This document shows positions 24,016 to 62,799 of a stretch of 64,000 bases of DNA, in pieces (within the stretch, counting starts at the first letter, position 1; each line of letters opens with the position of its first letter). Position numbers and translations under genes: made by a program. The notes beneath the pieces are model-generated. The model was not told the DNA's origin and made no database searches. It saw only the letters and a program-made list of their open reading frames with translations. This DNA is from Tubulanus polymorphus (lineage: Eukaryota; Animalia; Nemertea): positions 13,585,653 to 13,649,652 of the forward strand of contig NC_134028.1 in assembly GCF_964204645.1 (NCBI RefSeq). Reading direction: 5' to 3'.

Positions 24016-24096
24016 AAGTAATTGGGAAAGTAGGCTTTCAGATCAGAGGTCGAAGGTCGACCACTCATCACCACAAGTAATTTTTTTTCCTAATAA

Positions 24097-24421
24097 ATGG
24101 GAGATAGAAAAGCATTCTTAGCAACAATAAATAACAGAATTAAACCAACAAAAAACAATTTGAAATAAAAAAGTTAGTTGATGTTACAAAAGAAATTGAA
24201 CATAAGATATTGAAATTAGAAAAGATAAAAACTAAATATGGAGAGAAAGTATCAGCTAATCTAAGCTACTGCAATGTTAGTACATCACGAGAATTTAAAG
24301 TGTTTTTACCCGATAAATGGGTTTCATTGAGTACAGAGGAATTGAAAGATTTAGTAGGATTTAAAATAATATATCATGGGAAAATGAAGACGGTCATCAT
24401 GATTTAGAAATTGTTGATTAA
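24097..24421 (+). pseudogene. Frameshifted small Polinton gene, paralog of 41003-41356
   Basis: TKYGEKV...FKVFLPDKW..LSTEELKDL...IIYHGK aligns with NKYGDKL...FRTYLPDRF..LSSEDLEEL...FIYKGK. Confidence 0.7.
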
Positions 24422-24507
24422 ATAAAAAATAAAAATAATGAATATCTAGAATTCAAAATGACCTTAATCGTTTTATTAACAACTACAATCATACAGTCAA
24501 ACATCTG

Positions 24508-24756
24508 TTACATGTTATTATAAGGGAGTGCTTCATTTGAATATTGATCGACAAAATTTTTACATTTTCTAGATGCTATTAATATTTCTAATTGATGTTT
24601 ACAATAAAGATAATATTCATAATTATTATTTGTTGTAACATTATTTAAAGCACCATCATCTGGAGTTAATTTTGTTTCTGTTATTCCTAAATCATCTAAA
24701 GTTTTTTCAATTGGAACATCACCATTTTTAGATTTTATTTTCTTTTCACCTACCAT
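24508..24756 (-). CDS. Hypothetical Polinton protein (82 aa)
   Basis: ORF starting at the element-typical TAAATG motif. Confidence 0.5.
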   Translation of the reverse strand: MVGEKKIKSKNGDVPIEKTLDDLGITETKLTPDDGALNNVTTNNNYEYYLYCKHQLEILIASRKCKNFVDQYSNEALPYNNM

Positions 24757-24788
24757 TTATATAACAAAAAAATTAGTTGTGATGTTGC

Positions 24789-25032
24789 AACTAGAATTCA
24801 ACTAGAATGTAACTAGAATTCAACTAGATTAACAAGCTAGTTGAAATATTGTTGTTTTTGTTTATTTCTAGTTAAATCTAGTTGATTTTTGTTTCAACTA
24901 CTAACAACTAGAATTCAACTAGAATGTAACTAGAATTAAACTAGATTAACAAGCTAGTTAAAATATTGTTAAATCTATTTGATTTTTGTTACAAATACCA
25001 ATAACTAGAATTCAACTAGATTAACAAACTAA
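24789..25032. repeat. AACTAGAATTC-type 11-bp repeats within ~100-117-bp blocks
   Basis: AACTAGAATTCAACTAG...ATTAACAA blocks start at 24789, 24906 and 25003. Confidence 0.85.
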
Positions 25033-25038
25033 TTGAAT

Positions 25039-25647
25039 TTAAATAAATTCATATTTAAATGGGTGTTGTAATCTAAATAGTAATTTTGATCTTTTAATAT
25101 TTTTCAACTTATCCATATATTCATTATGTAAATCATGTGGAATAATATCATTTTCCTCAAGTGCATTTTTCATCGATTTTCTATCTTTATTGTAGAATAA
25201 AACTAGAAATCTAATGTTTTCTCTAAAGTCTTTAACAATTGAATTATATTTTTGATTTAAAACCCAAGTTGTTATCCCAAAATGTCTCCCAGAGAAAGCT
25301 AAATAGCATAACTCACTTTCTCTAACTTTTGAATCATGTAGATTAGCACAATCATCTATAATGAATAATGTATTTGATCCTTTATAAATATCAATTGCTA
25401 TTTTAATACAATTATCTAAATTTTCTTTTACTGTTTTAGGATCTAATATAATAAATTTATTATTCCTAGTAATATTTCTATCATAAGTTTGATTAAATTC
25501 ATATGTTGGACAAAATAATACTATATTATCAAAATAGTTTTCATAAACAGTTTCTAATAAAATTAATATAAAATAAGTTTTTCCACAATTTGTTACACCA
25601 GAAATTAACATATTATGAGGCTCAAATATGAATAATTCCTTATTCAT
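25039..25647 (-). CDS. A32/FtsK-like DNA packaging ATPase
   Basis: Walker A SGVTNCGKT, Walker B LFIIDD, and the GRHFGIT...NQ motif. Confidence 0.92.
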   Translation of the reverse strand: MNKELFIFEPHNMLISGVTNCGKTYFILILLETVYENYFDNIVLFCPTYEFNQTYDRNITRNNKFIILDPKTVKENLDNCIKIAIDIYKGSNTLFIIDDCANLHDSKVRESELCYLAFSGRHFGITTWVLNQKYNSIVKDFRENIRFLVLFYNKDRKSMKNALEENDIIPHDLHNEYMDKLKNIKRSKLLFRLQHPFKYEFI

Positions 25648-26776
25648 TTATATATTTGTAATTTTACTTGATAATATCCATTCATTGAATTTATCTGGCC
25701 ATCCAACCCATTTTACTAAAGAACATTTTTTTCTTTTAATAGTTTTTGTTTTTAATACTTTTTCAACTTTATATTCTTGTTCTAGATTTTCAGTAGTTAA
25801 ACTTAATTCTTCTTCGTAAAAGTAGCCATCAACTTCTTCACCATCTAAATCTTCTAATTTATAGACATATGGTTTTGTTGTTATTACCTTTTTTATTTTA
25901 TATATTTCTCTAGTAAAATTTCGATCGTATCCTTTATCAAATATCTTTTTATACTTAGAAATTCTAACATTTTGACCAACTTTAAATTTAGGTTCACCAA
26001 AATCATCTACAAGAAATGCTCCATATAAATTATTCCAAAAAATTTCAGCATTTTCAGGTTTTCTAGCATCAATAGGTTTCATTCCAATAGAAGAATGATA
26101 AGAATTATTATATCCTTCTATCAATTTTTGTAAAACATCAATCCATTTAAAAATATTATTTGCTGTAAAATATTTCCACATTCTTGTTCTTAATGTTCTA
26201 TTAAATCGTTCAACAACTGCTGCTTTTTTATCCGATTTTGTTGAAAAATATTTAATATTATGATTGTCTAAGAGTTCATGAACAAGTGAATTATCAAACT
26301 CTTTTCCATCATCAAATTGTATTTTCTCTGGTTTTAGTTTATCATCCGAAAGAAATTTTCTTAAAACATTTGATGTTTGTACAGCATCTTTTCTATAAAG
26401 TGGGAAGCTCCATACATAACGACTAAAAATATCAATTATATTCAATAACCACCAATAATCATCATTATCTTTCTTAACATTTTTCATATCAATTAAATCT
26501 CCTTGCCACTGTTGATCTACATAACTTACCATAGTTTTACGAGTTTTATATTTTCTAACAATTTTTTTATGTGTTGTATATGTTGGTTGTTCTAACATAA
26601 ATTCATTTATATCTTTATATTTAACTAAATTTTGTGGGATTATCTTATCTAATTTATCTTGTTTTACTTGAGGCCATATATTTTTAGTAGAAGAATAAGC
26701 AACTGAACTCACAGGGTTGTAATATAAATTTCTTAAATATTGTTCTTTAGTATTAGGAGTTTTTTTTACCACCCAT
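25648..26776 (-). CDS. RVE (DDE) integrase with C-terminal chromodomain
   Basis: WQGDLIDM, IQFDDGKEF, VVERFNRTL; C-terminal EYKVEKVLK...LVKWVGWPDKFNEWI. The motif-associated ATG at 26776 is out of frame with the ORF by a shift in an A-run. Confidence 0.95.
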
Positions 26777-26806
26777 TTATATATCCTTAATTTTAACTTT
26801 ATATTT

Positions 26807-28054
26807 CTAATATTGAATACTATCTAATTGTGAATTTACAATATTTAATTGCGCGTCAGATATAATATAAATGTGCATTTTGAAATTTTTGTCCCCTCTT
26901 TTCTTCGCCATGAATAATTGTATTCCATCTTTAGTGTTTTGTAGTTTTTTTCCAGAACCATGTAATGAATTATCCTCTGTTGTTCTAAAATCTAACCATA
27001 ATGCATATTTATTGCCGGTATAATAATCAATTTGATTAATATTACAATTTTCAAATGATTTTACTTTTTCATTCATAAAATGTTTTCTAATTTCTGGCCA
27101 CTGATCTATCATTCTCATTCCTTGGCAAAATATTTTATTTGCTATTCCTTCGATAGTTATTTCTACTTTTGTTATTTCAGGATTATAATAATTATCAACA
27201 TTTATTGTGCCATTAGTATATGTTGCAATGGTAAAAAATATTAATATGCCTTTAATAGATCTTCTTGGGAAGTTAATATTCTCATTAATTATTTCATCAT
27301 TTGCATTAATAGTTATGGTTTTAAATTTATCAATATAATCATATAATAATGAAAATCCTTGATTGTATTGAGTTTGAATTATACTTGAAATATTTTCATC
27401 AGTTACTGTATCATATTCTAAACATATATTCGATAATTTATAACTCATATCTTTAACAACGCTAGATAATACAATTTCATTTACAGGAGCAAATGTTATT
27501 TCGAATATAACATCTTCTTGAATTGCGTATTTATATAAAGGTGCATTATTATTTATCAATTCAAAATCTAATGGAATTTTATATTTGCTTCCATATATAC
27601 TTTTTATCAATTTATCTACAGCATTAGTTAATATTGCGCTATTAGCTTCTGATCTTAATTTATTTTGGTTTTCTGATTGGATGCCTTGAAATATCATATT
27701 ATTTCTATTTTCTTTAGTTAACCATAAATCTTTATAACGCATAAATAAATTATAATCATCTAATGAGAAAACTGTTTCCGGACCAATCTTTATTGTTAAC
27801 TTTTTAATCAAATATCTTCCAACATTATCAACAACATAATTATTATTATAACCGATTAATTTTATATCAGCTTATAAATAAATACTATTTGGAACATAAA
27901 AAGTATTTTTTGTTAATCGAGGGATTCTAACATATAAAGTTTCATTGGGATTAATATTTGAAGGGTTATTAGTAATTATATGATGTGATCTTTCTGCTTT
28001 AATAGCATTAGATATTCTAGAAATCTTAGAAGGACTTATATAACTCCCACTCAT
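26807..28054 (-). pseudogene. Major capsid protein (probable double jelly-roll, ~415 codons) with one in-frame stop
   Basis: ORFs 27872-28054 and 26807-27811 are in frame; TAA replaces the TCA seen in the copy at 46558. The size, position next to the integrase and beta-rich pattern fit a Polinton MCP (family call from recall, not from a search). Confidence 0.75.
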
Positions 28055-28075
28055 TTATTTAACAAAAAAAATTAA

Positions 28076-29539
28076 TTATTTATTTTTTATTATTTTTTCT
28101 TGATATCTTTTTGATATCATATTTACTGACCCAAAAATAATAGCACTTACAACTGTAATTAAAAATAAAATAATATGTTCAGCAGCAAAGTTAATAATGT
28201 TTCCTGCAGATTTCAATATAAAACCAACAATTGATGCAATAATTCCTGGTAAAGCTGCAGCAGATTTTTTAAATAGTTCCCATAAATATTTTGCTAATTT
28301 CTTTAAACCATCTTTAACTTTATCTTGTATAGAATTATTACCTGGGGGTTTATCTGGTTTATTGGGAGTGGGAGTAGGAGTAGATTTTAAAGCATTTGAT
28401 ATTGCTAAACCAATTGTTGTAAATAACATAGTTACAGCTGTTAGAATTGAAAGAATTGTTATTCCTTCTAACTTAAATAATAATCTTATTCTGTCTTTTA
28501 ATGATATTTCAGAATCTGGTTTAATCAACAAATCTTTAAAAATAACTTTTAATCTATTAATATTATAATCATATGATTTTAATAATGATTTAATTTCTTC
28601 TTTTTGTAATTCTATGTTATATTCTAAATCATTTTTTTCTTTTTCTAAACGTAATTCTTTTTGCCTATATTCTATTTCATCAATTGCTTGACGATCTAAA
28701 TCAGACTTTAATTGTTCTATTTCTTTATTTTTATCAGTTAATTCTTTTTCTAAAGTTCTAATTTTAAAATCTCTTATACTTTTATCATGCGCAATTTTAT
28801 CAGATGCAAGTCTTATACTAATAATTTCTCTAATTGCTTTATCAGAAAATATATTTAAATCTTCTAATTGTTGATCTGTTGCATCAAGTAATCCATTCGG
28901 TAAAAGTTTTTCAGTTTGAACTTCTCTTGAATTAGGTTTACTAGTTTTGGAATTAATAACTTCTTTAGGAATTTTTTTTTGTCTTAAATTTTCATTAATT
29001 ATCTTAAAAAATTTAGCATTTCTTTGTTTAAATTCTTTTATATTATCATCTCTTTCTTCTTGTGTAACATCAGTTATAACATCATTAATGATTTTCTTAA
29101 TTCTATCTGGTTTAAATAAATTAAAAGTTGATTGTGTTATTATTTTATCGTTACTTTTGAGATTTGAAATCTTAAAATAATAGTCGCCTTTCAATTTCCA
29201 ATGATAATCACCATTAAAATATTTCAAATCTTTTACTAAATAATTCATACCTTTATTTGTTTTATTGAAACCAGATCTTTTTAAAATTGGTTTAAATTCA
29301 TGAATAATTTCTTTATATTCGTATTCTTTTTCTGTTATTTCTTGTACTTCATTTTCAATACTTATCTTTGAACGTGTTTTATCAATATATTCAGGTGTAT
29401 TTAAATTAGAATTATATGCTGTTTCATTACCATCATTAAAACTTGTTTCATTAAAATCAGGTTGTGGTTCATCATCAATATATCCTTCATTATTAATTCC
29501 CATGCCTTCCAATGGAAAACCTTCTCCACCTTCTGCCAT
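28076..29539 (-). CDS. Coiled-coil protein with C-terminal hydrophobic/TM segments (487 aa)
   Basis: Heptad-rich middle; hydrophobic GITILSILTAVTMLFTTIGLAI and IILFLITVVSAIIFG; conserved in three copies. Confidence 0.8.
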   Translation of the reverse strand: MAEGGEGFPLEGMGINNEGYIDDEPQPDFNETSFNDGNETAYNSNLNTPEYIDKTRSKISIENEVQEITEKEYEYKEIIHEFKPILKRSGFNKTNKGMNYLVKDLKYFNGDYHWKLKGDYYFKISNLKSNDKIITQSTFNLFKPDRIKKIINDVITDVTQEERDDNIKEFKQRNAKFFKIINENLRQKKIPKEVINSKTSKPNSREVQTEKLLPNGLLDATDQQLEDLNIFSDKAIREIISIRLASDKIAHDKSIRDFKIRTLEKELTDKNKEIEQLKSDLDRQAIDEIEYRQKELRLEKEKNDLEYNIELQKEEIKSLLKSYDYNINRLKVIFKDLLIKPDSEISLKDRIRLLFKLEGITILSILTAVTMLFTTIGLAISNALKSTPTPTPNKPDKPPGNNSIQDKVKDGLKKLAKYLWELFKKSAAALPGIIASIVGFILKSAGNIINFAAEHIILFLITVVSAIIFGSVNMISKRYQEKIIKNK

Positions 29540-29555
29540 TTACATAATACAAAAA

Positions 29556-30972
29556 TTAAAATTTAAAATATAATATTCCTCCTATAACAATTCCTATACA
29601 AGTTATAGCTAATTTAGTATTTTCATGGGATTTATTATCATCATTTAGTTTAATTATTTCATGTTGAATATTATCAGTTTTAATATCACCGTGTGGGTGC
29701 CGTACGGCACCATTTTCTGATGTATTGTATTCTTTTATTTTAGAATCATTATTTAATTTAATATTATTAGTTTTAGTTTCTGTTGATTGAATACGTTTTT
29801 TATTTTTTTCACCTTCCATTAATTTTGGAGCAGTGATAATCTTTTTATTTATATCATTCAATCCAAATGAATTATTTATTGTTGCAGTTTTTAATTAGAT
29901 TATTATAACCAATTATGTTTCCCATCTTTAATACTAAATCATTAGAAATAATTAATAGATTAGGGCCTATACAATAATTCAGCCTCAGATGAAATTTATC
30001 TAAATAATTTTGATATCTTATAATGTTTTCTGGAATCGATCTATTTTTATCATTATGAATTGAATCTTCAAATAAAACTTTAAATTGTTTCTGTGTATCA
30101 AATGATGTATTCAAATTTCCAATTATCGGTGATCTTGTTTCAACTTGTGATCCTAGAATACAAATCAAATAAGTTCTAATAGATTGATTTATTCTTTCTA
30201 TACCTGATTTAGTAAAACCTTCACTATTTTCTAAAATGAAATAAACCCAACCATTATTGTTTTCTTGTTTTAAATGATCATAAAATTTCGGTAATTTTTT
30301 GAAATTTAATGTTTCTAAATCCTTAGTTTCTATTTTACCATAACCTAATTTATTATTATAGATATTATAAAAGCTATTAGATGGTATGGGAAGTGCACAA
30401 TATTCTGCAATCTTTTTAGGGCAAGGAAGTGATCTTATTGTTCCAATTTTTGTTCTAAAATCAGAATTATTTATATCTATATTAAATTCATTGCAAATTT
30501 TATAAAACTTAGATAAATTAATATTATTATCTAATTCTTTAAAATATCTAGATCCTGGTAAAGCGCACTCTAATTCATTTAATATTATTCTGATTTGAAA
30601 GTATGTATGAAATCTAAACAAACTTTGAATTAATTTATATTTAGAATTATTCAAATGATCATTCCAACTAATTCCACATCCTGTTGTTGCACAATAAACA
30701 GCAAAATTTAATTGGTTCTGCCAATACTTCATATTAGATTTTAATAACCATTGTTTTTCATCTTTCAATTTTTTAAAATTAATTAAATATACATAAAATA
30801 TATTTTCCATCTTTGCATTAAAATTATTAGTTTCAGTAACATAAATTTCTAAATTAGTTAATGAATCTAAAACTTCATTTCTATATGTAATATCTTTATT
30901 AAAATCTATTGCTGGAATATTATATTTAATTGATTTATTATATTGGAAAGCTTTTGGAAAACTATCAACCAT
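29556..30972 (-). pseudogene. Conserved Polinton protein with C-terminal TM anchor, one frameshift
   Basis: The 366-aa and 101-aa ORFs are bridged in the other two copies; extra A in AAAAACTG near 29890; motif YWQNQLNFAVYCATTGCGIS. Confidence 0.75.
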
Positions 30973-30988
30973 TTATATAATTAAAAAA

Positions 30989-31423
30989 TTAATAATTTAT
31001 TAATTCTTTTAATAATTTATCTTGTTCCTCAACTGTTATATGACCATTTAAACTTATTATATAATCTAGTGTGTTCTTTAATTTATTAATTTCTTTTATA
31101 TTATTTTTAATTTTTTCTTTATTACTTTTTATATTTAATTTTGAACTTATACCGGTTAAAACACTTGAACTTAATCCTAACACACCAATTGATATAGCTA
31201 AAGGTGTTAATGGACTGAATATTGCAAGAAATGTTATTACAGAACTAATTGTAACCGAACCACTGATAATAAGATAATATATAATTTTACTTTTTAGATA
31301 TTTTTTCTTTTTACTTTTTAAGTCACTTTCAAATTCTAATATTTGTTTTTCTAAATATATTTTTAATTTAGTTTTATTTATATCATGAGGAATAATATCA
31401 ATACTATCGACTTTATCTTCCAT
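30989..31423 (-). CDS. Small two-TM protein flanked by coiled coils (144 aa)
   Basis: Hydrophobic hairpin; homologs at 43166, 61555-61974 and ~62890-63107. Confidence 0.8.
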   Translation of the reverse strand: MEDKVDSIDIIPHDINKTKLKIYLEKQILEFESDLKSKKKKYLKSKIIYYLIISGSVTISSVITFLAIFSPLTPLAISIGVLGLSSSVLTGISSKLNIKSNKEKIKNNIKEINKLKNTLDYIISLNGHITVEEQDKLLKELINY

Positions 31424-31442
31424 TTATTTAGAAAAAAAATTA

Positions 31443-31865
31443 CTAATTAGTAAACTTATATGCTACAAATATAACAATAACAGTTCCACCTAAAATCCAT
31501 ATTATTTCATATTTCTTCTGTTCATTACTTGGGGTATAATAATCTGATAATTTAGGTTTGTATAGATGTAATTTTTCTTTATTTGTTACTGCGTTATATA
31601 AACTCATTGCATCATCAACTGATTGAAAATCTCTGTGTGAAATCTTCTGATCATATAATTCTTTGTTAATATAATCCATATAGTTTTGCCTCTTTTCTCT
31701 ATATTCTTCTGCTGCTTTATTGTATTTCTCTAATGCTAAGTTATGTCTTCTTTGTTCTCCTAATGAACTATTTTTATCAATATGTTTAAATAAATAACCA
31801 CCACCAGTAAATGCTAAAGCGTTAACAATTGCTGATCCTATAATAGTTATAATTGCAGAAACCAT
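31443..31865 (-). CDS. Small Polinton membrane protein (140 aa)
   Basis: Hydrophobic N- and C-termini; homolog at 42727. Confidence 0.8.
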   Translation of the reverse strand: MVSAIITIIGSAIVNALAFTGGGYLFKHIDKNSSLGEQRRHNLALEKYNKAAEEYREKRQNYMDYINKELYDQKISHRDFQSVDDAMSLYNAVTNKEKLHLYKPKLSDYYTPSNEQKKYEIIWILGGTVIVIFVAYKFTN

Positions 31866-31890
31866 TTATTTAGCAAATAAAATTATGCAT

Positions 31891-32112
31891 TTATATGGGA
31901 GGAATATATTTTTGTTTTTCCAAATAATCAATAGTTAAATTAGATAAAGTAACTGCTAATGTTAATTTTAAAATATCATTTATATCAAATCTATCAACAT
32001 TAACACTTCCCATTTTAAATACTTTTTTTAATACCATTGAATAACCAACAGTTCCAACTGATAGTAATGCTCCATTATATAATCCAGTTATTATCCACTT
32101 ATTATCACTCAT
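31891..32112 (-). CDS. Small hydrophobic protein (73 aa)
   Basis: Nearly identical ORF at 42481-42702. Confidence 0.75.
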   Translation of the reverse strand: MSDNKWIITGLYNGALLSVGTVGYSMVLKKVFKMGSVNVDRFDINDILKLTLAVTLSNLTIDYLEKQKYIPPI

Positions 32113-32454
32113 TTATTTATCAAAAAAATTACTATCATCAAAATATTTAGTTAACTTATTTATGATTATTTCAACATTTATTTCATTACTAGTTTTATGA
32201 TTATCATATATTTTGGATAATATGTTTTTGATATCATCAATAATTCCATCTTCATTTAATTCATAATATTCTAATGGTGATTTAATTAAATCAATTACTT
32301 TTTCTATATTATAATTTTCTTTATCAATCATTGATGCATTGTTAAATGATTTACTTTTTATATCAGTAATTACATCATTTAATTTAATTATCATTTCTTT
32401 ACCATGTTTAAAATCAAACCCAAAACATATACTCGGTCCAACAGTTATATTCAT
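32113..32454 (-). CDS. Hypothetical protein (113 aa)
   Basis: Homolog at 42124-42480 with conserved ends and a divergent middle. Confidence 0.7.
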   Translation of the reverse strand: MNITVGPSICFGFDFKHGKEMIIKLNDVITDIKSKSFNNASMIDKENYNIEKVIDLIKSPLEYYELNEDGIIDDIKNILSKIYDNHKTSNEINVEIIINKLTKYFDDSNFFDK

Positions 32455-32471
32455 TTATATAGTGAAAAAAA

Positions 32472-33233
32472 TTACTCTCTACATCTTATAACTAATTCAT
32501 AAATTACAGGGAAATTATTTAAATCAATTAAGTATCCATTATGATTTCTAATTTCTAATCTAAAATTATTAAAACGAGGAATGCATGGTTTGAAATCACA
32601 TTCTGTTAATTTATAATTTATTTGCGTTTCAAATTCTTTAACATTCTTCAATGGTAAAATGTTTAGTAAACCAGAATTACAAGTTATATCTTTAGTTGCT
32701 TCGAATGTTTTTGTAGGATCGATTAAATTGCAATAAATATAAAAATGTGTGTAAGGTATTAAGTTTGGTGTAGTAGCGTCAATATTTGTAAAAGATCTAT
32801 CTGGAAGAATTCCTAACAGTTTAGCTATAGGTTTTTTTACCATAAATTTATGTTTTTCACTATTAGACAACCTTATCTTTATTCTATCAGAACTCTCACT
32901 TTTTAAAAATCTAATACTAAACCCAGAACTACTACCTAATTTGTGCCAGGCTTTTCTATTAATTTCTTGTGGCAATGTATCTAAATTATATAACCCTGTT
33001 TTTAAATATATATAGACCCATTCATTTTTATTTTTATTAAAAATTAAAAAAGCTCTATGTTCAATAGTTTTATCCGATATATTGTAAAATGAGTAACATA
33101 AACTTATATTAACTAATTTTAAATCTACACAATTCTTAAATTCTCTATCTAATTGAACTATTAAATTATGAGATTTATAATTTGTAAGCCTTCTAGAATC
33201 AACAAATATTCTGTATTGTTTTAATTCTACCAT
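32472..33233 (-). CDS. Probable minor capsid protein (penton)
   Basis: IFVDSR near the N-terminus, YSFYNIS, and C-terminal IRNHNGYLIDLNNFPVIYELVI resemble Polinton/virophage-type pentons. Confidence 0.6.
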   Translation of the reverse strand: MVELKQYRIFVDSRRLTNYKSHNLIVQLDREFKNCVDLKLVNISLCYSFYNISDKTIEHRAFLIFNKNKNEWVYIYLKTGLYNLDTLPQEINRKAWHKLGSSSGFSIRFLKSESSDRIKIRLSNSEKHKFMVKKPIAKLLGILPDRSFTNIDATTPNLIPYTHFYIYCNLIDPTKTFEATKDITCNSGLLNILPLKNVKEFETQINYKLTECDFKPCIPRFNNFRLEIRNHNGYLIDLNNFPVIYELVIRCRE

Positions 33234-35366: not shown

Positions 35367-35406
35367 CGCAACGTTTCGGCTAAAGACTATTAGCCATCAT
35401 CAGGCG
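35367..35406 (-). ncRNA. Hammerhead ribozyme, inverted copy
   Basis: Reverse complement of 40082-40121. Confidence 0.8.
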
Positions 35407-35725
35407 TACTGAGTACAGGAGAATATTACAAGATATTTATACAAGACCAAAACAATAGAAGCAGAGTGAGTGATTAAAATATTGAAAGGGGAATAGATTA
35501 AAGTAATGACATAACAACTAGAAAACAATGCTAAAGTAAGCAAGGCAAACTAGGGGCAATGTAGATTAAAGTAATTAATAAACAAAGACACAAGCTAAAG
35601 TGATTAAAACGGGAGGACAAGCTAAGGGGTAATCAAATAAAACAAAGAGAAGGAACATGAAAGGCGATAATCAGAGAGTGAGTGGAAACAAGCAAACTAT
35701 GATAAAGGCAAAACAATGAAGGGAA

Positions 35726-37315: not shown

Positions 37316-37839
37316 TTTTTGATTATAATCACAGATATCTAAGAGAACAATTTTGCCACCTTTATCAGCTTTTGAAATACGAACAGAGTCTAGTTCAATT
37401 CTTCTTTATAACCTTTCCACATCTCATCTCTTGCTTTCGGACTTATGAAAAGCGGTACATCCAAGCGAAAACAGCAAAAACCAAAGTGAAATTTCTGCAA
37501 GACTGCCTCAGCGAAAAGGTGATTCCTCGCTCCATGAACTGGATCAAGAAATTCGATTCGCATTCACCATTTCCGAAGCAAGTAAATTCTCATCTAAGAT
37601 CAGCGATCGGCAAAGCTAAAGATGATTGCGATTATCAATTCTTCAGATCTCGGCAAGCGCACAATTACCTCAGATCTCAACTTCCGGACCCGCATCTCTT
37701 CAACTTACTCAGCTCTATCGTTATGGACTCCGGTAACCGTCATTTTTCATTTTTCTGACAATTCTTGTAAACTTATTCGAAACTTCAACAGCTCATTATT
37801 CTTAGTCCTTGGACTAAGTTTAGCAACACGGACATTATT

Positions 37840-39762
37840 GTGAATCTCTCCTCCGTTTCGCTCACGTTGTATCAACTTCAACTCCTTGGCTTCGGTTTGA
37901 ACTTTTCTTTACCTCACCGCAAGACGAACATCCTGGATTTTATGTCGGAATTAGAACAGCGTAAGACATCTTCCTCGAATTTTGACTACAATTTTATGTT
38001 TATGAACTTACAAACTATTTGTGATAACCTCCGTTATAATTACTCAGAATTTTTACCTCGTCGTTTCAGGATTGCCCTCTCTGAACTCAGAAAACTAGAC
38101 TCTGTTCGTGTTTCAAAAGCTGATAAAGGTGGCAAAATTGTTCTCTTAGATATCTGTGATTATAATCAAAAAATGTTCTCCCTTCTCGGTGACTCTAATG
38201 TTTATAAACCATTGAAATCCAACCCTCTCTCACGTATGCAAGCTTCATTCAATAACAATCTGTCTGGTATTATCCAACGGTTTCCGGACTCTAAAGATAT
38301 TCTTTCGAAATTTCAATCACGTCTACCCTCCCTACCTTATATCTATGGGCTCCCCAAAATCCATAAGAAAGATGTTCCGCTGCGCCCCATTGTATCTAAT
38401 TGTAATTCGCCCTCTTATCGTTTATCCAAATTTCTGGCTAAACAATTATCACCGGCTCTTGGTTCTTTCTCCGCCTCGCATTTACGACACAACCAAGATT
38501 TATTAGAACGGTTAAAAAACATTATTCCTGGTAACGATAGATTCATTTCGTTTGATGCTAGTTCTCTTTTTACCAATGTTCCTCTTAGGCCTACCCTTGA
38601 TTTTCTTAAACGGAAACTTCCTTCGTTGGATTTCAATTTTGACATTCCTACTGATTGTATTATCGAATTAATTGAACTTTGCACCCAGAACTCCTTTTTT
38701 AGTTTCAACAATTCATATTTCGAACAGGTTTTTGGCATGGCTATGGGGAACCCGCTTAGTCCCATTCTAGCAAATCTTTTCCTGGAACACGTTGAAACCG
38801 AATTACTACCTCTTTACACAGATACTCTCCCTAAACTTTGGTTACGATACGTTGATGATATTCTTGCCCTTATACCTTTTTACTTTGATATTGATCAATT
38901 TCTCACATTTATTAACTCTTTTTATCCCTCCTTGAACTTCACATTTGAATTGGAAGTTGATGGGAAAATCCCTTTCCTTGATGTTTGTATACACAATTGT
39001 TTGTCTTGTCTAAAATTCTCGGTTTATAGGAAACCTACCCACTCTGGAACATACCTACATTATTTCTCCTTCACCGCTCATAACATTAAACTTAGTGTTG
39101 CCCAAAGCTTATTCCTTCGCGCATTAAGGATTTGTGACCCCCTTTTCTTGGATGATGAACTAACCCAGATCAAGACCTCTCTTAATAAATTAGCTTACCC
39201 CGACGACATTTTGAATAAAGCTCTCTTGAGAGCCCGTCGTTCACATTTCAGTCGCTCTCAAGGGACCCGCGCGCGTAAACAGCCTATTATTGTACCTTTT
39301 GTTCCTTTTCTGGAAAAATCTAAAACTCCCCTCCATCTCTTAAACAAACAACTCATTTTTACTTATAACAACAAACTTAGTCGTAATCTTACTCATAACT
39401 CCCCCAAAATTGAACCCCTGAACATTGGTGTATATAAAATTCCCTGTAAAGTTTGTAACAAAATATATATCGGCGAAACCGGACGCGATTTACACAAGCG
39501 CATTCGTGAACATAAGAATGATGTAAAGAATTTTAAGCCTGAAAGCGGTGTTGCTAATCACGTATACGAAACCAGCCACAATTTTGATTTTGAAAATGCC
39601 TCCATAATTTTCCCCTGTTCAGAAAAGATTAAACGACACATTATGGAATCGGCCCTGATTATTGAAAACTTGGAAAATTGTGTTAATTTGAATAACGGTT
39701 TTTCCCCCCACAACATTTTGATCTCCAAATTTCTCGCTTCTCTTGTACCCCCGTTATACTAA
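37840..39762 (+). CDS. Penelope RT + GIY-YIG endonuclease; the N-terminal part at ~37396-37840 is disrupted
   Basis: KADKG, RT motifs with YVDD, C-terminal GIY-YIG with CxxC. Confidence 0.95.
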   Translation: MNLSSVSLTLYQLQLLGFGLNFSLPHRKTNILDFMSELEQRKTSSSNFDYNFMFMNLQTICDNLRYNYSEFLPRRFRIALSELRKLDSVRVSKADKGGKIVLLDICDYNQKMFSLLGDSNVYKPLKSNPLSRMQASFNNNLSGIIQRFPDSKDILSKFQSRLPSLPYIYGLPKIHKKDVPLRPIVSNCNSPSYRLSKFLAKQLSPALGSFSASHLRHNQDLLERLKNIIPGNDRFISFDASSLFTNVPLRPTLDFLKRKLPSLDFNFDIPTDCIIELIELCTQNSFFSFNNSYFEQVFGMAMGNPLSPILANLFLEHVETELLPLYTDTLPKLWLRYVDDILALIPFYFDIDQFLTFINSFYPSLNFTFELEVDGKIPFLDVCIHNCLSCLKFSVYRKPTHSGTYLHYFSFTAHNIKLSVAQSLFLRALRICDPLFLDDELTQIKTSLNKLAYPDDILNKALLRARRSHFSRSQGTRARKQPIIVPFVPFLEKSKTPLHLLNKQLIFTYNNKLSRNLTHNSPKIEPLNIGVYKIPCKVCNKIYIGETGRDLHKRIREHKNDVKNFKPESGVANHVYETSHNFDFENASIIFPCSEKIKRHIMESALIIENLENCVNLNNGFSPHNILISKFLASLVPPLY

Positions 39763-40081
39763 TTCCCTTCATTGTTTTGCCTTTATCATAGTTTGCTTGT
39801 TTCCACTCACTCTCTGATTATCGCCTTTCATGTTCCTTCTCTTTGTTTTATTTGATTACCCCTTAGCTTGTCCTCCCGTTTTAATCACTTTAGCTTGTGT
39901 CTTTGTTTATTAATTACTTTAATCTACATTGCCCCTAGTTTGCCTTGCTTACTTTAGCATTGTTTTCTAGTTGTTATGTCATTACTTTAATCTATTCCCC
40001 TTTCAATATTTTAATCACTCACTCTGCTTCTATTGTTTTGGTCTTGAATAAATATCTTGTAATATTCTCCTGTACTCAGTA

Positions 40082-40121
40082 CGCCTGATGATGGCTAATA
40101 GTCTTTAGCCGAAACGTTGCG
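40082..40121 (+). ncRNA. Minimal type I hammerhead ribozyme in the Penelope 3' region
   Basis: CGC-CTGATGA-T-GGCTAA-TAGTCT-TTAGCC-GAAACGTT-GCG: conserved core, stem II and short stem I. Confidence 0.8.
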
Positions 40122-41002
40122 CAAATATATATAACTCTTCTATTCAAGTTTCTCGTTTTGGCTGAACTTATTGTGGGATTTCTCTTGTTAGGAAACTATA
40201 TCTTTGGCACAAAAAGGAAAAGCTGCTATATCAGGATTAAATATATTATGCAATTCATTAGGATTTAATATGTTAGTTAATATTAGAAAAGATAAACCAA
40301 ATTTATTTCAATTAACGCATGTAGAAAATGAACTAACTGAAGAAGCTAGAGATTTATTTGAAATATCCAATCCTACAGAATATGTTTATGATTTAACAAC
40401 TGAAGATGGTACATTTAATTGTGGATTTCCATTAATCATAAAAAATACAGATTCTTACATATTAAAGATAAAAACTAATAACATAACTGATGATTTAAAA
40501 ACATTGAAACATCATTTTGATTTCAGTAACTATCCTAAAGATCATGAATTGTTTAGCAATGATAATAAAAAAGTTCCCGGTAAATTCAAAGATGAATTAG
40601 GTGGTGAAGAAATGATTGAATTCATAGGTATTAGATCTAAAATGTATTCATATAAAACTAGAACATGAAGCTAAAAAGTTAAAAGGAATAACCAAAAGTG
40701 TAGTAGAAAAGAATATTCATTTCAAAGATTACATCAATTGTATATTCAATGAAGAAGTTAGAAAACATAAGATGAAATGTTAAATCTGAAGATCATGAAA
40801 TGTTCATTGAAGAAATTGAAAAGATTAGTCTAAACCGATTTGATGATAAAAGATATATTTTAGATGATGGAATTCATACAGTTGCTTATGGCTGCAATTT
40901 AGATGAATACTTAAAATTTAAAAGAGAAGAAACAAAAGAGAACGAGATAATGCAAAGAATTCGAACGTGTTAATCAAATCTTAATAAAAATATGTATTAT
41001 AA

Positions 41003-41356
41003 ATGGAGAGTAAACAAACACACAGTGAGAACAACAAATTATTTCTAGATAGAATAAAAGATACTTCAAATGTTAATTCAGTAGATTATAAATTTAAGAA
41101 GTTAAAAGAATTAATAATCCATAAGAAATATCTAATTACAAATATTGATACAGTTACTAACAAATATGGAGATAAATTAGTAATACACTTAGAATATGAA
41201 GGATTAAAAGGAAATACATATAAATTCAGAACATATTTACCAGATAGATTTCATAGATTATCAAGTGAAGATTTAGAAGAATTATGTTCTGGAGATTTCT
41301 ATTTCATATACAAAGGTAAGAATGAAAAAGGGCACCACGAAAAAGATTTCGAATAA
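41003..41356 (+). CDS. Small Polinton protein (117 aa), function unknown
   Basis: Intact ORF after pPolB; relatives at 24097, 52769 and a start fragment at ~46887-46918. Confidence 0.75.
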   Translation: MESKQTHSENNKLFLDRIKDTSNVNSVDYKFKKLKELIIHKKYLITNIDTVTNKYGDKLVIHLEYEGLKGNTYKFRTYLPDRFHRLSSEDLEELCSGDFYFIYKGKNEKGHHEKDFE

Positions 41357-41370
41357 AATATGTAAAATAA

Positions 41371-42107
41371 ATGGTAGAATTAAAAGAATACAGAATATTT
41401 GTTGATTCTAGAAAACTTACAAATTATAAATCACATAATTTACGAGTACAATTAGATAGAGAATTTAAGAATTGTGTAGAAGTTTATGTAACTCATTTTA
41501 CAATATATCGAATAAAACTATTGAAGATAATATTTTTTTAATTCATATTAGAAATGTAAATAAATGGTTTCATCTAATTTTAAAACCAGGATTATATAAT
41601 TCAGAAACATTAGCTCAAGAAATTAATAGAAGAGCACGGTTGAAAATTAGAAGTGAAGATAAATTTATAATTAGATTTATAAAAAGTGATAGCACAAATA
41701 AAATTAAAATAAAGTTACATGATGAAAGTCAACATGCATTTATGGTAAAAAACCTATAGCTAAACTGTTAGGAATTGTACCAGATGCTGTTACAGGAAAC
41801 GTAGATGGTAATTCAAATTTAATGACTTTTACGCACTTTTATATTTATTGCAATTTAGTTGATCCTACAAACATTTGAAGCATCTAAAGATACAATTTGT
41901 AATTCTAGTATATTAAATATTTTACCATTAAAAAATGTTAAACAATTTGGAACGCAAATAAATTATAATTTAACTGAATGTGATTTTAAACCTTGTATTC
42001 CTCAATTTAACAATTTTAAGTTAGAAGTAAGAAATCACAATGGATACTTAATTGATTTGAATAACTTTCCTGTAATTTATGAATTAGTTATAAGATGTAG
42101 AGAGTAA
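41371..42107 (+). pseudogene. Second, divergent penton-like gene, frameshifted
   Basis: Same N- and C-terminal sequence as 32472-33233, split over several frames. Confidence 0.75.
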
Positions 42108-42123
42108 TTTTTTCACTATATAA

Positions 42124-42480
42124 ATGAATATAACTGCTGGACCGAGTATATGTTTTGGATTTGATTTTAAACGTGAGAAAGAAATGAAATTTAACATTAC
42201 TGATGTAATTATACATATTAAAGATATTGCATTTTCTAATGAAACAACATTTGAGTATGAAAAAACAATAGTTAAAGAAACTTTAAATGTAGAAAAGATT
42301 ACTAATTTAATTAGAAAATCTTTAAGATTTTATGAATTAGATGAAGATTTTATCATTGATGATATTAAAAGAATAATAACTGAAATATATGAAAATGAAA
42401 CTAATAATACTATAAATGTTGAAATAATTATAACGAAGATAAGTGAATATTTTGAAGATAGTAATTTTTTTGATAAATAA
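42124..42480 (+). CDS. Homolog of 32113-32454
   Basis: MNITAGPSICFGFDFK...SNFFDK. Confidence 0.7.
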   Translation: MNITAGPSICFGFDFKREKEMKFNITDVIIHIKDIAFSNETTFEYEKTIVKETLNVEKITNLIRKSLRFYELDEDFIIDDIKRIITEIYENETNNTINVEIIITKISEYFEDSNFFDK

Positions 42481-42702
42481 ATGAGTGATAATAAGTGGAT
42501 AATAACTGGATTATATAATGAAGCATTACTATCAGTTGGAACTGTTGGTTATTCAATGGTATTAAAAAAAGTATTCAAAATGGGAAGTGTTAATGTTGAT
42601 AGATTTGATATAAATGATATTTTAAAATTAACATTAGCAGTTACTTTATCTAATTTAACTATTGTTTATTTAGAAAAACAAAAATATATTCCTCCCATAT
42701 AA
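42481..42702 (+). CDS. Homolog of 31891-32112
   Basis: Differs by two amino acids. Confidence 0.75.
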   Translation: MSDNKWIITGLYNEALLSVGTVGYSMVLKKVFKMGSVNVDRFDINDILKLTLAVTLSNLTIVYLEKQKYIPPI

Positions 42703-42726
42703 ATACATAATTATTTTACTAAATAA

Positions 42727-43145
42727 ATGGCCTCTGCAGTTGTAACTATTATAGGATCGGCAATTGTTAACGCTTTAGCATTTACTGGTGGCGGTTATTT
42801 ATTTAAGCATATTGATCAAAATGGATCATTTGCAGAACAGAAAAGACATAACTTAGCATTAGAGAAATACAATAAAGCAGCAGAAGAATATAGAGAAAAG
42901 AGACAAAACTATATGGATTATATTAACAAAGAATTATAGGATCAGAAGATTTCACATAGAGATTTTCAATCAGTTGATGATGCAATGAGTTTAACGCGGT
43001 AACCAATAAAGAAACATTACATCTATACAAACCTAAATTATCAGATTATTATACCCCAAGTAATGAACAGAAGAAATATGAAATAATATGGAATTTAGGT
43101 GGAACTGTTATTGTTATATTTGTAGCGTATAGATTTACTAATTAG
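42727..43145 (+). pseudogene. Homolog of 31443-31865 with premature stop
   Basis: TAT to TAG at ~42937, plus a downstream indel. Confidence 0.8.
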
Positions 43146-43165
43146 TAATTTTTTTTGCTAAATAA

Positions 43166-43591
43166 ATGGATGATAATATTGATATTATTCCTCATGATAT
43201 AAATAAAACTAAATTAAAAATATATTTAGAAAAACAAATATTAGAATTTGAAAGTGATTTTAAGATAAAAAAGAAAAAATATTTAAAAAGTAAAATTATA
43301 TATTATCTTATTATTAGTGGTTCGGTTACAATTAGTTCTGTAATAACTTTTTTAGCAATATTCAGTCCATTAACACCTTTAGCTATATCAATTGGTGTGT
43401 TAGGATTAAGTTCAAGTTTTATAACTGGTATAAGTTCAAAATTAAATATAAAAAGTAATAAAGAAAAAATTAAAACTAATATAAAAGAAATTAATAAATT
43501 AAAAAATACACTTGATCATATAATAAGTTTAAATGGCCATATAACAGTTGAAGAACGAGATAAATTATTAAAAGGATTAGTTAATTATTAA
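43166..43591 (+). CDS. Homolog of the two-TM protein 30989-31423
   Basis: Near-identical translation. Confidence 0.8.
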   Translation: MDDNIDIIPHDINKTKLKIYLEKQILEFESDFKIKKKKYLKSKIIYYLIISGSVTISSVITFLAIFSPLTPLAISIGVLGLSSSFITGISSKLNIKSNKEKIKTNIKEINKLKNTLDHIISLNGHITVEERDKLLKGLVNY

Positions 43592-43607
43592 TTTTCTAAT
43601 TATATAA

Positions 43608-44924
43608 ATGGGGTTTCCAAAAGCTTTCCAATATAATAAATCAATTAAATATAATATTCCAGCAATAGATTTTAATAAAGATATTTCATATAGATATGAA
43701 GTTTTAAATTCATTAATTGATTTATATATTTATGTTACTGAAAGTAATAATTTTCATGTAAAGATGGAAAATATATTTCATGTGTAAACAATTAATTTTA
43801 AAAATTTAAATGAGGCAAAACAATGGTTATTAAAAACTAATATGAAGTATTGGCAGAACCAATTTAATTTTGCTGTTGCGCTACAACAGGATGTGGAATT
43901 AGTTGGAATGATCATTTAAATAAACCAAGTTTACTATTGATGTTATCACGTTTTAGATTTCATACTTATTTTCAAATAAAATTAATATTAGATGAATTAG
44001 AATGTCCTTTACCAGGTTCCAAATATTTTAAAGAATTGAATATTAATATTAATTTTTCTAAGTTTTATAAAATATGTAATAATTTTAATATTAATTCAAA
44101 TAATGATTTTAGAGCAAAAATTGGTACAATGGGTGGATTAGGAATATTATATACTAAAGAATTTGGAAAAATAATGACAAATTCAGATATTAGAACACTA
44201 AATTGGAATGAATTAACAAAATATTATAATAATATACAACAACAAAACAATAATGGTTGGGTTAATTTCATTTTAGAAAATAGTGAAGGTTTTACAAAAT
44301 CAGGTATACAAAGAATAAATCAATCAATTAGAACTAATTTGATATGTATTTTAGGTGCGCAAGTTGAAACAAGATCCCCAATAGTTGGAAATGATAACAC
44401 TTCATTTGATGCGCAGAAACAATTCAAAGTATTATTTGAAGATTCAATTCATAATGATAAAAATAGATCGATTCCGGAAAACATTGTAAGATATCAAAAT
44501 TATTTAGATAAATCACATATTAGATTAAATTATTGTATAGGCCCCAATCTATTTAGTATTTCTAATGATTTAGTATTAAAGATGGGAAACATAATTGGTT
44601 ACAATAATCTAATTAAAACTGCCACAATTAATAATTCATTTGGATTAAATGATATAAATAAAAATATCATAACTGCTCCAAAATTAATGGAAGGTGAAAA
44701 AAATAAAAAAACACATTCAATCAACAGAAACTAAAACTAATAATATTAAATTAAATAATGATTCTAAAATAAAAGATTACAATACATCAGAAGATATAAA
44801 AACTGATAATATTCAACATGAAATAATTAAACTAAATGATGATAATAAATCCCATGAAAATACTAAATTAGCTATAACTTGTATAGGAATTGTAATCGGA
44901 GGAATATTATATTTTAAATTTTAA
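43608..44924 (+). pseudogene. Homolog of 29556-30972, disrupted
   Basis: Fragments 43937-44734 and 44694-44924 match copy 1. Confidence 0.8.
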
Positions 44925-44939
44925 TTTTTTATTATGTAA

Positions 44940-46537
44940 ATGGCAGAAGGTGGAGAAGATTATGAAATGGAAAACATGGAAAATAATAATGAAGGATATA
45001 TTGATGATGAACCGCAACCCAATTTAAATGAAACTAATATTGATGATGATAATTCATCAGCATATAATTCTAATTTAGCAGATAGTGGTTCTAAAGCCCC
45101 ATCAACAGAGGAATATATTAGAAAAACTAGATCGAGAATAAAACCTGAAAATAAAAATCAAGGTTTATCAAGACAAGATTTAGAAAATAATGAATTTATG
45201 TATAAATTCAAACCTGTATTTAAAGATTCTGGATATAATATAAATGACAGAGGCGCCAGACTTTTAGTAAAAGTATTAAAGTTTTTAGATGGTGAATATT
45301 TTTATCGTTTGAAAGATGATTATTATATTAATATCTCTTATAAAAATCAAGATAAAATATTAGCGGAATCAACTTTGGAAAAATTAGAACCAGATAGAAT
45401 TAAAAAAATAAGCATTAATAATGAAATAGAAAATGTAACACAAGAAGAAATAAATCACTATAAAAATAAAAAAGTATCTAAACAAAGAATTAATGAATTA
45501 TTTGAAACAATCGATAAAAATTCAGAACCAGAAATGGAAGAGGATGGAGATCGATTAGATAAATTAAGATCGTCAACACCCGAAACATCGAGAAGAGATA
45601 TTCAACCAATTGATAATGATTCAAGTCAATTACAATTAGGAAAACGTTTAGATAACTTACTGGATACAATGAATTCATTTGAAGAAGAGATGAATAGTGT
45701 TTTAGATACACCCGGTACTGAAACTGGAATAAATCGAATACAACATCTATTAGAAAAAGGATTACTTGATTTAACTGATGATGAATTCGAAGCATTTCCT
45801 GAACAAGCACGTAGAGAAATTAAAGGTATGCAAGAATCAGCTGGTGAAATTGCTAATATTAAGATGAGATTTTCTAAAATAACCATGTTAAAAAAAAAAA
45901 ATTAACTAATGCAAATGAAGAATTAAAACAATTAGAATTAAATAGAGATCATCAATTAATCGAGGAAGCTGATTATGAAAGAAGAAAGTTAGCTTTAGAA
46001 AAAGAAATTGATGATTTAAAATATAACAAAGAATTACAGGAAAAAGAAAGAGATACATTATTAAAATCATATGATCTTAATCATATTTACAAATTATAAG
46101 TTATTTTTAAAGATTTGTTGATAAAACCAGATTCTAAAATATCACTAAAAGATAGAATAAAATTATTATTTAAGTTTGAAGGAATAACAATTCTTTCAAT
46201 TCTAACAGCTGTAACTATGTTATTTACAACAATTGGTTTAGCTATATCACATGCTTTAAAATCTACTCCTACCCCCAATAAACCAGATAAACCCCCAGAT
46301 AATAATTCTATACAAGATAAAGTTAAAGATGGTTTAAAGAAATTAGCAAAATATTTATGGGAACTATCTAAAAAATCTGCTGCAGCATTGCCAGGAGTTA
46401 TTGCATCAATTGTTGGTTTTATATTGAAATCTGCAGGAAACATTATTAACTTTGCTGCTGAACATATTATTTTATTTTTAATTACAGTTGTAAGTGCAAT
46501 TATTTTTGGGTTAGTAAACATGATAAAAAATAAATAA
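44940..46537 (+). pseudogene. Homolog of the coiled-coil/TM protein, frameshifted
   Basis: MAEGGE start and matching C-terminal TM region; shift in the A-run near 45895. Confidence 0.8.
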
Positions 46538-46557
46538 TTAATTTTTTTGTTAAATAA

Positions 46558-46887
46558 ATGAGTGGGAGTTATATCAATCCTTCTAAGAATCATAGAATAT
46601 CTAATGCTATTAAAGCAGAAAGATCACATCATATAATTACTCATAACCCTTCAAATATTAATCCCGATGAAACTTTATTTGTTAGAATTCCTCGATTAAC
46701 ACAAAATACTATTTATGTTCCAAATAGTATTTATTTATCAGCCGATATAAAAGTAACTGGTAATAATAATAATTATGTTGTTGATAATGTTGGAAGATAT
46801 TTGATTAAAAAATTAACAATAAAGATTGGTCCAGAAACAGTTTTCTCATTAGATGATTATAATTTATTTATGCATTACAAAGATTTA
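46558..46887 (+). pseudogene. Truncated second major capsid gene
   Basis: First ~110 aa match 28054 downward, then an abrupt junction to terminal sequence. Confidence 0.8.
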
Positions 46888-46990
46888 TGAATTCACTGTG
46901 TATTTGTTTACTCTACATATTTTTTCATTAAAATTGATTTCATTGATATAATATTCATTTATATAATGTCCATATATATGAATATCATTA

Positions 46991-51491: not shown

Positions 51492-51702
51492 CTGAAATGA
51501 AGTGTAAATCATAATTACACATTATATTCGTCATCGATTGGAGTGTAGGCCAGAGATTGTATCATTATAAGCAGCTGATATATATACTATAGCTGATAGT
51601 TAGCAGGCTAAACTAGTAAAAATTAAAGATTACTTAATGAAAACTGTTAACCAGGGTATTGTTGGTCAGTTAAACAGCACTATATTGGTTAGTAATTAAA
51701 AC

Positions 51703-51873
51703 CTTTTTCGTTTTGATTCTGTTCTTTGAAACACTCTTCGTAGCAATCAAGTGAATAAAATATTTCAATATAGAGGCATACGGTGTCACTCCAATACCAC
51801 CACCAATTAGTACTGAAACTTCGAATCTAAACCAATCCTGTTGTCCAGCGCCATAAGGCCCATCTAAATGTAT
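51703..51873 (-). CDS. DUOX: Dual oxidase exon
   Basis: [14 protein letters not shown]...[15 protein letters not shown]; AG/GT boundaries. Confidence 0.92.
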
Positions 51874-51945
51874 CTAAAAAAGTCGCTTTAATGAAAAAAC
51901 AAATTCAACTCATTTTAACATTTGCACGTCAAAAATTCTAAAGAC

Positions 51946-52175
51946 CTTAGGGATATTTTCATGATTAATATTTTCTGCAGTGAATAAACTTCGTATTTTC
52001 CATGTCCATGGCCCTAGTGCTCGGATGTATACGGACAGGGTCTTCTCGTGTGGACTAGATGTAAGTGTAAACGGGTGAAATTCTTGCTGTCCCTGATTTC
52101 CACAGGCTAGACGAATCCACTGTCCAGACAAGTAATCAAAATCGTGTGGTCGCTTGAACTCCAAATATGTCACGT
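51946..52175 (-). CDS. DUOX: Dual oxidase exon (FAD-binding domain)
   Basis: SGQWIRLAC...EFHPFTLTSSPHE...IRALGPWT; phase-1 acceptor matches the upstream exon. Confidence 0.92.
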
Positions 52176-62725: not shown

Positions 62726-62799
62726 CGAATAAATCACGTGAATATCCATAGGAGAAACAGAAAACCCTAATTAATTCGTGAAATTAAAACCAAATCTTT

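Follow-up and report, generated by a model that had tools for sequence, protein, structure and literature searches.

A promoter-like start motif across one clade of animal Maverick/Polintons, possibly read by a helper virus

How animal Polintons express their genes, and whether any of them depends on a helper virus to do so, is a question raised by a 64,000-nucleotide stretch of the nemertean Tubulanus polymorphus (NCBI RefSeq assembly GCF_964204645.1, contig NC_134028.1, positions 13,585,653 to 13,649,652 of the forward strand), which we call the window and whose first letter is position 1 below. The window holds three decayed copies (A, B and C) of one element, 80–90% identical to one another. 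That element is a Maverick/Polinton, with a protein-primed family B polymerase (pPolB), an rve integrase, an A32-like ATPase and a double-jelly-roll capsid. A preliminary description of this DNA had remarked that nearly every gene begins with a T tract and TAAATG, in the manner of a poxvirus late promoter, and had proposed a virophage-like hyperparasite whose genes are transcribed by a co-infecting virus's RNA polymerase. We find that the signal is real and lineage-specific: a promoter-like grammar that runs across one clade of animal Polintons and is nearly absent from the starts of the same genes in the sister clade. As to what reads it, we put a probability of roughly 0.6 on each gene having the motif as its own promoter and on a co-infecting helper of the Nucleocytoviricota type supplying the RNA polymerase that reads it.

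A motif at nearly every start

Every one of the 25 positions given in the preliminary description proved to be an ATG preceded by TAA, and the variant start at 33233 reads TAAATAATG. These 26 starts come from one gene set carried by three copies and do not stand for 26 independent genes. They lie in the following pieces.

24017..41356 (left end approximate): Polinton copy A, the most complete, decayed.
41371..46890, plus strand: Polinton copy B, penton to capsid-gene start, 83–85% identical to A, with eight TAAATG starts.
52738..53150, plus strand: fragment of a copy of the single-stranded DNA-binding (SSB)-like gene, with TAAATG at 52769.
57051..62108, minus strand: Polinton copy C, heavily decayed, within an intron of the host oxidase gene, with TAAATG at 57945, 59621 and 61974.

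A fourth small Polinton fragment, which like the one at 52738 is grouped with copy C, has drifted.

62769..63117, minus strand: start context now CAAATG.

Copy A has 14 distinct genes, and 13 of them start with TAAATG, which bears out the statement that nearly every gene does; the remaining one, at 33233, has TAAAT three bases upstream of its ATG. The motif is gone from two more homologous starts, at about 61520 and 62890 in the fragments that are decayed most, which the preliminary description had not listed. One T-rich example may stand for the rest.

24078..24099, plus strand: promoter-like motif of ORFa; a like motif lies at about −19 to +3 of every listed start.

The motif is bipartite and its spacing is fixed: an A/T core from about −19 to −10 with T at −12, a short spacer that tolerates G and C, and then WATAAATG. 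T stands at −12 in 22 of the 25 window starts. Six A/T followed by T at −18 to −12 are found at 21/25 starts, against 4/46 TAAATG sites that are not starts. The tract reported upstream of many starts is there as well, the literal AATTTTTT falling within 30 nucleotides of the start in 12/25. In the window, A-rich cores sit at replication genes and T-rich cores at structural genes; that split is mixed in relatives, where the ATPase core averages 2.7 T and the capsid core 4.5 T, yet the penton is A-rich and the integrase T-rich, and we take the split as no more than a lead.

How much of this could base composition give? TAA precedes 38 of the 496 ATGs of copy A, counting both strands. Against 200 dinucleotide shuffles the bare TAAATG hexamer is mildly over-represented and stays within the shuffle range (36 versus 24.1 ± 5.5, maximum 41), while the bipartite pattern [AT]6-T-N8-TAAATG is in clear excess (11 versus 1.9 ± 1.4, maximum 7). 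Two other observations of the preliminary description also hold: intergenic gaps are below 30 bp in 17 of 21 cases, mostly 14–30 nucleotides, and we saw no introns in the window copies. Introns are lacking in the sister Polintons too, so this last feature does not discriminate.

Relatives as a natural control

Capsid searches brought in 83 related loci. Of these, 59 had a capsid frame of 300 residues or more and went, together with the window, into a quick IQ-TREE tree; the other 24 were left out. In open reading frames (ORFs) that were homologous to window genes or belonged to four recurrent families, the ATG nearest downstream of the preceding in-frame stop was counted as the start. The window falls in a clade of 15 rows (support 99) inside an unresolved clade of 21 rows (100), and 39 rows form the sister clade (100).

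Among 14 close relatives of the window, TAAATG stands at 48 of 56 core-gene starts. More distant members, with capsids about 35% identical, have it too (5/5 starts in L064, 2/2 in L081, 3/4 in L066). In the 39 loci of the sister clade, which carry the same genes, it is found at only 2 of 227 starts. In GC-rich sisters the first ATG can precede the true start, possibly lowering the TAAATG count, and the AT-rich sisters are therefore the fair control: in those 11 loci TAAATG occurs at 1/41 starts, and A stands at −3 in 33/41. The motif is kept in clade members of 36–44% GC (13/15 starts in L010, L011, L064 and L081), and the upstream half travels with the initiator, T standing at −12 in 96% of the relatives' 48 TAAATG starts.

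Gene arrangement speaks to the same point. We classified 68 TAAATG starts in 17 loci, a set that included ORFs chosen for TAAATG and so does not measure enrichment; 19 of them belong to head-to-head genes, with gaps down to 15–30 bp, and T at −12 is kept in 18 of the 19. With head-to-head genes carrying the motif too, it is not accounted for by stop-start coupling, AT content, Kozak bias or splicing. Three other sequence signals, depletion of AATAAA, of splice donors and of internal TAAAT, did not separate the motif clade from its sister.

Some single loci deserve a word. At L064:2476-2492 two head-to-head genes lie 15 bp apart, and each initiator, on the opposite strand, sits at the other's expected core. 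In a close relative of the window a deoxynucleoside kinase gene (L008:10340-10981) carries the same motif; we tried it as a pointer to a donor, and its one relative, at 37%, is without the motif, so it names none. In one sister subclade (L061, L047 and L051) the upstream regions are (TA)n-rich or have TATAATG start contexts, perhaps a different grammar. The capsid homologues of the P0019 cluster and of L001-L003 bear the names of bacterial or archaeal genomes, probably through host or bin contamination.

Likeness to poxvirus late promoters and the search for a possible helper

In vaccinia late promoters TAAAT(G) overlies the start codon, and within a stretch of Ts one T, ten bases upstream, is conserved (PMC11980589). 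Their spacer is 5–7 bp (PMC5294985). The viral polymerase reads TAAA directly at −1 to +3, and a factor binds the AT-rich core about one helical turn upstream (PMC12917281). Slippage at the initiator gives 5′ poly(A) leaders in vaccinia and in yeast virus-like elements (PMC6211774). Poxvirus late and intermediate promoters and the window element look alike in three respects: TAAAT(G) over the start, a core rich in T or in A roughly a helical turn before it, and a short tolerant spacer. The spacing of the motif equals the published vaccinia late consensus within one base, a comparison made with published text and not with poxvirus DNA; the T at ATG−12 is the tenth base counted from the first A and the ninth counted from the T, and −13 is T in 79%. 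TAAATG is also mentioned 30 times in a salmon gill poxvirus paper. Unlike poxviruses, where the motif stands at a subset of genes, the Polinton clade has it, as a putative promoter, at nearly all of them.

If a helper polymerase reads these putative promoters, transcription would start inside TAAAT, and slippage would add a 5′ poly(A) leader in place of the missing 5′ untranslated region. All genes, pPolB and integrase included, would be switched on in the helper's post-replicative phase, and the rve integrase would insert the element, leaving germline copies. The free element would then be a virophage-like satellite. Mavirus-type elements, which carry the late motif of Cafeteria roenbergensis virus (CroV), are the precedent (PMC8547959).

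Which helper is harder to say. The T run at −12 tilts the comparison towards a pox-like late promoter, and we regard a helper that is pox-like in this respect as the likeliest kind, though overall at somewhat short of even odds; otherwise it would be another virus of the Nucleocytoviricota. Our scan of viral contigs for the motif pattern gave 38 stretches. The highest TAAATG shares, in giant-virus records among these pattern-selected stretches, were 6/13, 3/5 and 3/10 starts, figures biased by the pattern itself. Two TAAATG-bearing giant-virus records are iridovirus-like by their capsids, one of which starts its capsid gene with TAAATG, and the upstream cores in those records look A-rich by eye. 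Iridovirus-like genomes, then, also have TAAATG starts, and the initiator alone does not name poxviruses. No relatives of the Polinton itself were found among the viral contigs searched. The poxvirus likeness of the preliminary description thus stands in its geometry, while a poxvirus as helper is unproven.

An intein and a possible terminator signal

The polymerase gene carries a rare thing in an animal genome, an intein, and inside the intein lies a second insertion.

34448..40446, plus strand: interrupted pPolB intein carrying a LAGLIDADG endonuclease, at the YxD|TDS site (TIGR01445, E=2.8e-7; LAGLIDADG_3).
35298..40190, no strand assigned: inverted pair of Penelope-like retroelements (reverse transcriptase and GIY-YIG) inside the intein, with arms of 2098 bp.

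The arms of the pair are perfectly complementary, so the Penelope-like insertion is recent. The intein endonuclease had eight matches, one in another pPolB (60%) and seven in RNA-primed family B polymerases (30–44%), all at the same site. The intein of P0135, a relative of the window pPolB, is 32–39% identical to inteins of RNA-primed family B polymerases, again at that site. Among the clusters of intein relatives, one is labelled viral metagenome and none poxvirus. Long sister pPolBs have an empty YxDTDS in four of six cases, with no match in two. This distribution suggests past contact with large DNA viruses.

The second piece of side evidence concerns termination. The vaccinia early terminator is UUUUUNU (PMC6211774). 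In the core clade TTTTT-V-T is under-used on coding strands, where it accounts for 10 of 54 T5 runs against an expected fraction of 0.34 (p=0.008). Controls are not depleted: 24/54 for the reversed motif and 19/54 in AT-rich sisters. The antisense figures are 140 versus 153.

Weighing the reading

Several observations count against promoters read by a helper, or against a pox-like helper in particular. No helper was found, and the pattern scan of viral contigs gave no genome with most of its genes TAAATG-started; the helper polymerase of the preliminary description remains the best explanation. Nor is TAAATG specific to poxviruses, since unselected giant-virus stretches, two of them from the iridovirus-like records, have it at 5/15, 4/22 and 3/26 starts. 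The motif is missing in three members of the 21-row clade, whose node is unresolved (L042 0/8, L032 0/3, L080 0/4). Fisher's test gives p of 5e-18 with loci that are related, so that independence is overstated. Depending on numbering, there may be an offset of one base from the vaccinia T. Not all of the intein matches need be viral, P0136 having a Pol-delta-type zinc finger. The T5NT depletion is missing in three outer TAAATG loci (5/12, expected 0.24), was one of 22 motifs tried, and concerns a signal that acts on early genes in vaccinia, a poor fit with a late promoter; it is therefore weak evidence. Within genes, AATAAA occurs at 0.93 of its expected frequency in the one clade and the other alike, and hence there is no sign of escape from nuclear processing. 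Finally, coral polintoviruses, which may or may not belong to the motif clade, are expressed in ordinary samples (PMC11131425).

Of the other explanations the best survivor is a compact gene-by-gene promoter for host RNA polymerase II, perhaps with a factor from the element or the host, evolved without any helper. The element integrates in the nucleus, TATAAA occurs at 8/22 window starts, the coral polintoviruses are transcribed with no known helper (PMC11131425), and several clade-specific genes, among which a factor might hide, are without annotation. At −7 to −2, however, a TATA box would place the transcription start some 25–30 nucleotides further on, beyond the ATG (by the spacing given in PMC5294985), and no second methionine occurs among the first 60 residues of the capsid; a start inside TAAAT would leave a leader of just 2–3 nucleotides. 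The sisters have the same genes and do without such a motif, and the one clade-linked small protein that was folded is SSB-like. We consider a polymerase II promoter unlikely.

Less probable again is a translational signal, in which a U-rich leader and UAAAUG would let ribosomes enter polycistronic messages or restart on them after a stop, or in which the host lineage would simply have an unusual start context. The short gaps suit it, the upstream stop often providing a TAA at about −19, and the window contains no host start codon with which to compare context. Direct stop-start arrangements, however, account for 3/22 window starts and 2/68 in relatives, and the full motif is kept at head-to-head genes. 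Fixed spacing with a tolerant spacer is what a promoter would look like, and at 33233 TAAAT holds that spacing while the ATG sits three nucleotides away. The animal start context usually has a purine at −3; the motif has T there, and the sisters have A. Neither of the commonplace explanations that the preliminary description had raised against itself, stop-start coupling and Kozak bias, therefore fits.

We judge it quite improbable that a pox-like polymerase comes from a non-viral partner replicon, or that the motif is left over from an earlier dependence on a helper. Yeast cytoplasmic linear elements offer the model for a partner, having a TAAAN initiator, slippage leaders and their own pox-related polymerase (PMC6211774). 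The Polinton, against this, has capsid and packaging genes. To our knowledge no pGKL-like partner element exists in animals, and the motif is kept almost completely across elements whose capsids are 35–75% identical, which speaks for selection acting now. We may dismiss chance, AT richness, poly(A) signals and trans-splice acceptors: the element is AT-rich, its bare hexamer count lies within the shuffle range and AATAAA is present at 11/22 window starts, but the AT-rich sisters at 1/41, the half of starts without AATAAA, the head-to-head genes with no upstream message to end, and an AG within 12 nucleotides at just 1/22 starts refute them. On the same spacing, counts and head-to-head genes we rejected a TATA box, a poly(A) signal, trans-splicing and stop-start coupling.

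The element and its genes

Copy A reads, from left to right, as follows.

24097..24407, plus strand: ORFa, paralogue of the SSB-like gene; frame broken after 23 codons.
24508..24756, minus strand: ORFb, 82 residues, no assigned function; longer in a relative (206 residues).
25039..25647, minus strand: A32-like packaging ATPase (Pox_A32, E=2.6e-12); the TAA of its TAAATG is the integrase stop.
25648..26776, minus strand: rve integrase with chromodomain (rve E=2.6e-10, Chromo E=0.001); frame broken after seven codons.
26807..28054, minus strand: double-jelly-roll capsid gene, interrupted (predicted model, pLDDT 88.6; PBCV-1 capsid, E=2.6e-12).
28076..29539, minus strand: conserved Polinton gene of 487 residues, coiled coil and hydrophobic C-terminus; found in the sister clade too.
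29556..30972, minus strand: conserved Polinton gene split over two frames; 442 residues in a relative.
30989..31423, minus strand: membrane protein of 144 residues; weak SLATT match, E=0.0017, below the cut-off.
31443..31865, minus strand: conserved Polinton gene of 140 residues.
31891..32112, minus strand: conserved gene of 73 residues; the whole of its promoter-like motif falls within the end of the preceding gene's coding sequence.
32113..32454, minus strand: gene of 113 residues, no assigned function.
32472..33233, minus strand: probable minor capsid (penton) gene, with the TAAATAATG start; head-to-head with pPolB, gap 67 bp.
33301..40973, plus strand: pPolB, shortened and in several frames; pieces 53–68% identical to P0135.
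41003..41356, plus strand: OB-fold protein of 117 residues, with the A-rich form of the motif.

P0135 matches DNA_pol_B_2 at E=5e-17. The penton label is probable, and P0177, a homologue of that gene, resembles Preplasmiviricota and Nucleocytoviricota clusters including DUF5901. The 117-residue protein is, on its predicted fold, likely a single-stranded DNA-binding protein, with weak support (fold-comparison Z of 4–5; phage SSB, E=1.2e-4); as a transcription factor it was ruled out, having an OB fold instead. No RNA polymerase or transcription factor was matched among the ORFs scanned or annotated, the sole weak match so labelled being a piece of the intein endonuclease. A maturation cysteine protease gave no Pfam or NCBIfam match among the ORFs scanned, in copies and loci that are incomplete. 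The modelled capsid matches PBCV-1 far above mavirus (rank 45), and on that model we would not file the element under Virophaviricetes (Lavidaviridae). The only long gap of copy A (24788-25020) holds short internal repeats of CAACTAGAATT units, and related repeats lie behind the ATPase in L008.

The preliminary description had suggested that endogenous copies might reactivate on infection. For the window copies this is not supported: integrase, capsid and polymerase frames are all broken in copy A, and no terminal inverted repeats or target duplication were found at the window copies, which are truncated. For these reasons they are fossils, unable to reactivate on their own.

The surrounding locus

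A 118-bp satellite with 105-bp variants fills 1-15620 and 22996-24015 of the window, its second block directly adjoining the start of copy A. Between the blocks, 18631-19159 and 15631-15998 recur at 22098-22998, and a 67-bp tandem repeat runs for 22.5 copies at 16981-18493. From 24 kb onward the Polinton copies are about 24% GC. Further along is a host gene.

51670..63922, minus strand: dual-oxidase (Duox)-like gene by sequence matches, exons 63443-63922, 51910-52212 and 51670-51873.

Its best matches are bivalve Duox (61–62%), then fish, from which it follows that the host is an animal. Within a Duox intron lies a cysteine-rich ORF of 261 residues (54214-54999) with no Pfam match, and a 42-bp tandem repeat is found at 55159-55324. 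Two related AT-rich segments, 46899-47118 and 52528-52788, one of them imperfectly palindromic, sit beside the copy B ends and the SSB-gene fragment, and are possibly the remnant of a terminus or of a small transposon.

Other elements, and what the motif may mean

With other animal Maverick/Polintons (Polintoviricetes, adintoviruses) the window element shares pPolB, rve integrase, A32 ATPase, double-jelly-roll capsid, compact intronless genes and germline copies; it differs in its pPolB intein, in the motif missing from its sister clade and in having no maturation protease detected. Mavirus and the endogenous mavirus-like elements of Cafeteria, whose helper is CroV, likewise have pPolB and rve and one common upstream motif, theirs matching the helper's late promoter (PMC8547959). 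They have a protist host, a virophage capsid, a TCTA motif, a known helper and demonstrated reactivation, whereas ours has an animal host and a Maverick-type gene set. Polinton-like viruses found in entomopoxvirus occlusion bodies (Barth et al. 2024, PMC11296320) are Polinton-like animal elements proposed as hyperparasites of poxviruses; they differ in encoding a cysteine protease, in lacking rve and in their divergent capsids, and the evidence for them is co-occlusion. The yeast cytoplasmic pGKL elements are pPolB replicons with a TAAAN initiator (PMC6211774), and differ in having their own polymerase, an ATNTGA upstream element, no capsid and no integrase.

Helper-read promoters are thus already known for protist virophages, and poxvirus-associated polinton-like viruses for insects (PMC11296320). 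The terms promoter, motif and TAAAT did not occur in the searchable text of PMC11296320, nor did the word promoter in that of PMC8502044, PMC11131425, 10.64898/2026.10.13.758929 or 10.64898/2026.06.19.733378, and we found no report of the motif in animal Mavericks among the papers listed, subscription papers and supplements apart. One virophage paper (PMC4722103) contains TAAATG once. Animal Polinton virions have not yet been observed (10.64898/2026.06.19.733378).

Where sister clades share their genes and differ in promoter grammar, that grammar offers a sequence marker for helper dependence. The motif points to an undescribed large DNA virus of invertebrates, pox-like or of another kind. The fullest version of the story we hold tentatively, as less probable than not: a whole clade of Mavericks, ordinary in appearance, may have left host transcription to parasitise an undiscovered poxvirus-like virus of aquatic invertebrates, rewritten all its promoters in the late grammar of that virus, avoided the virus's terminator and gained its polymerase intein in a shared factory. 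Its germline copies would then be a record of that virus and, where intact, may be an inducible defence.

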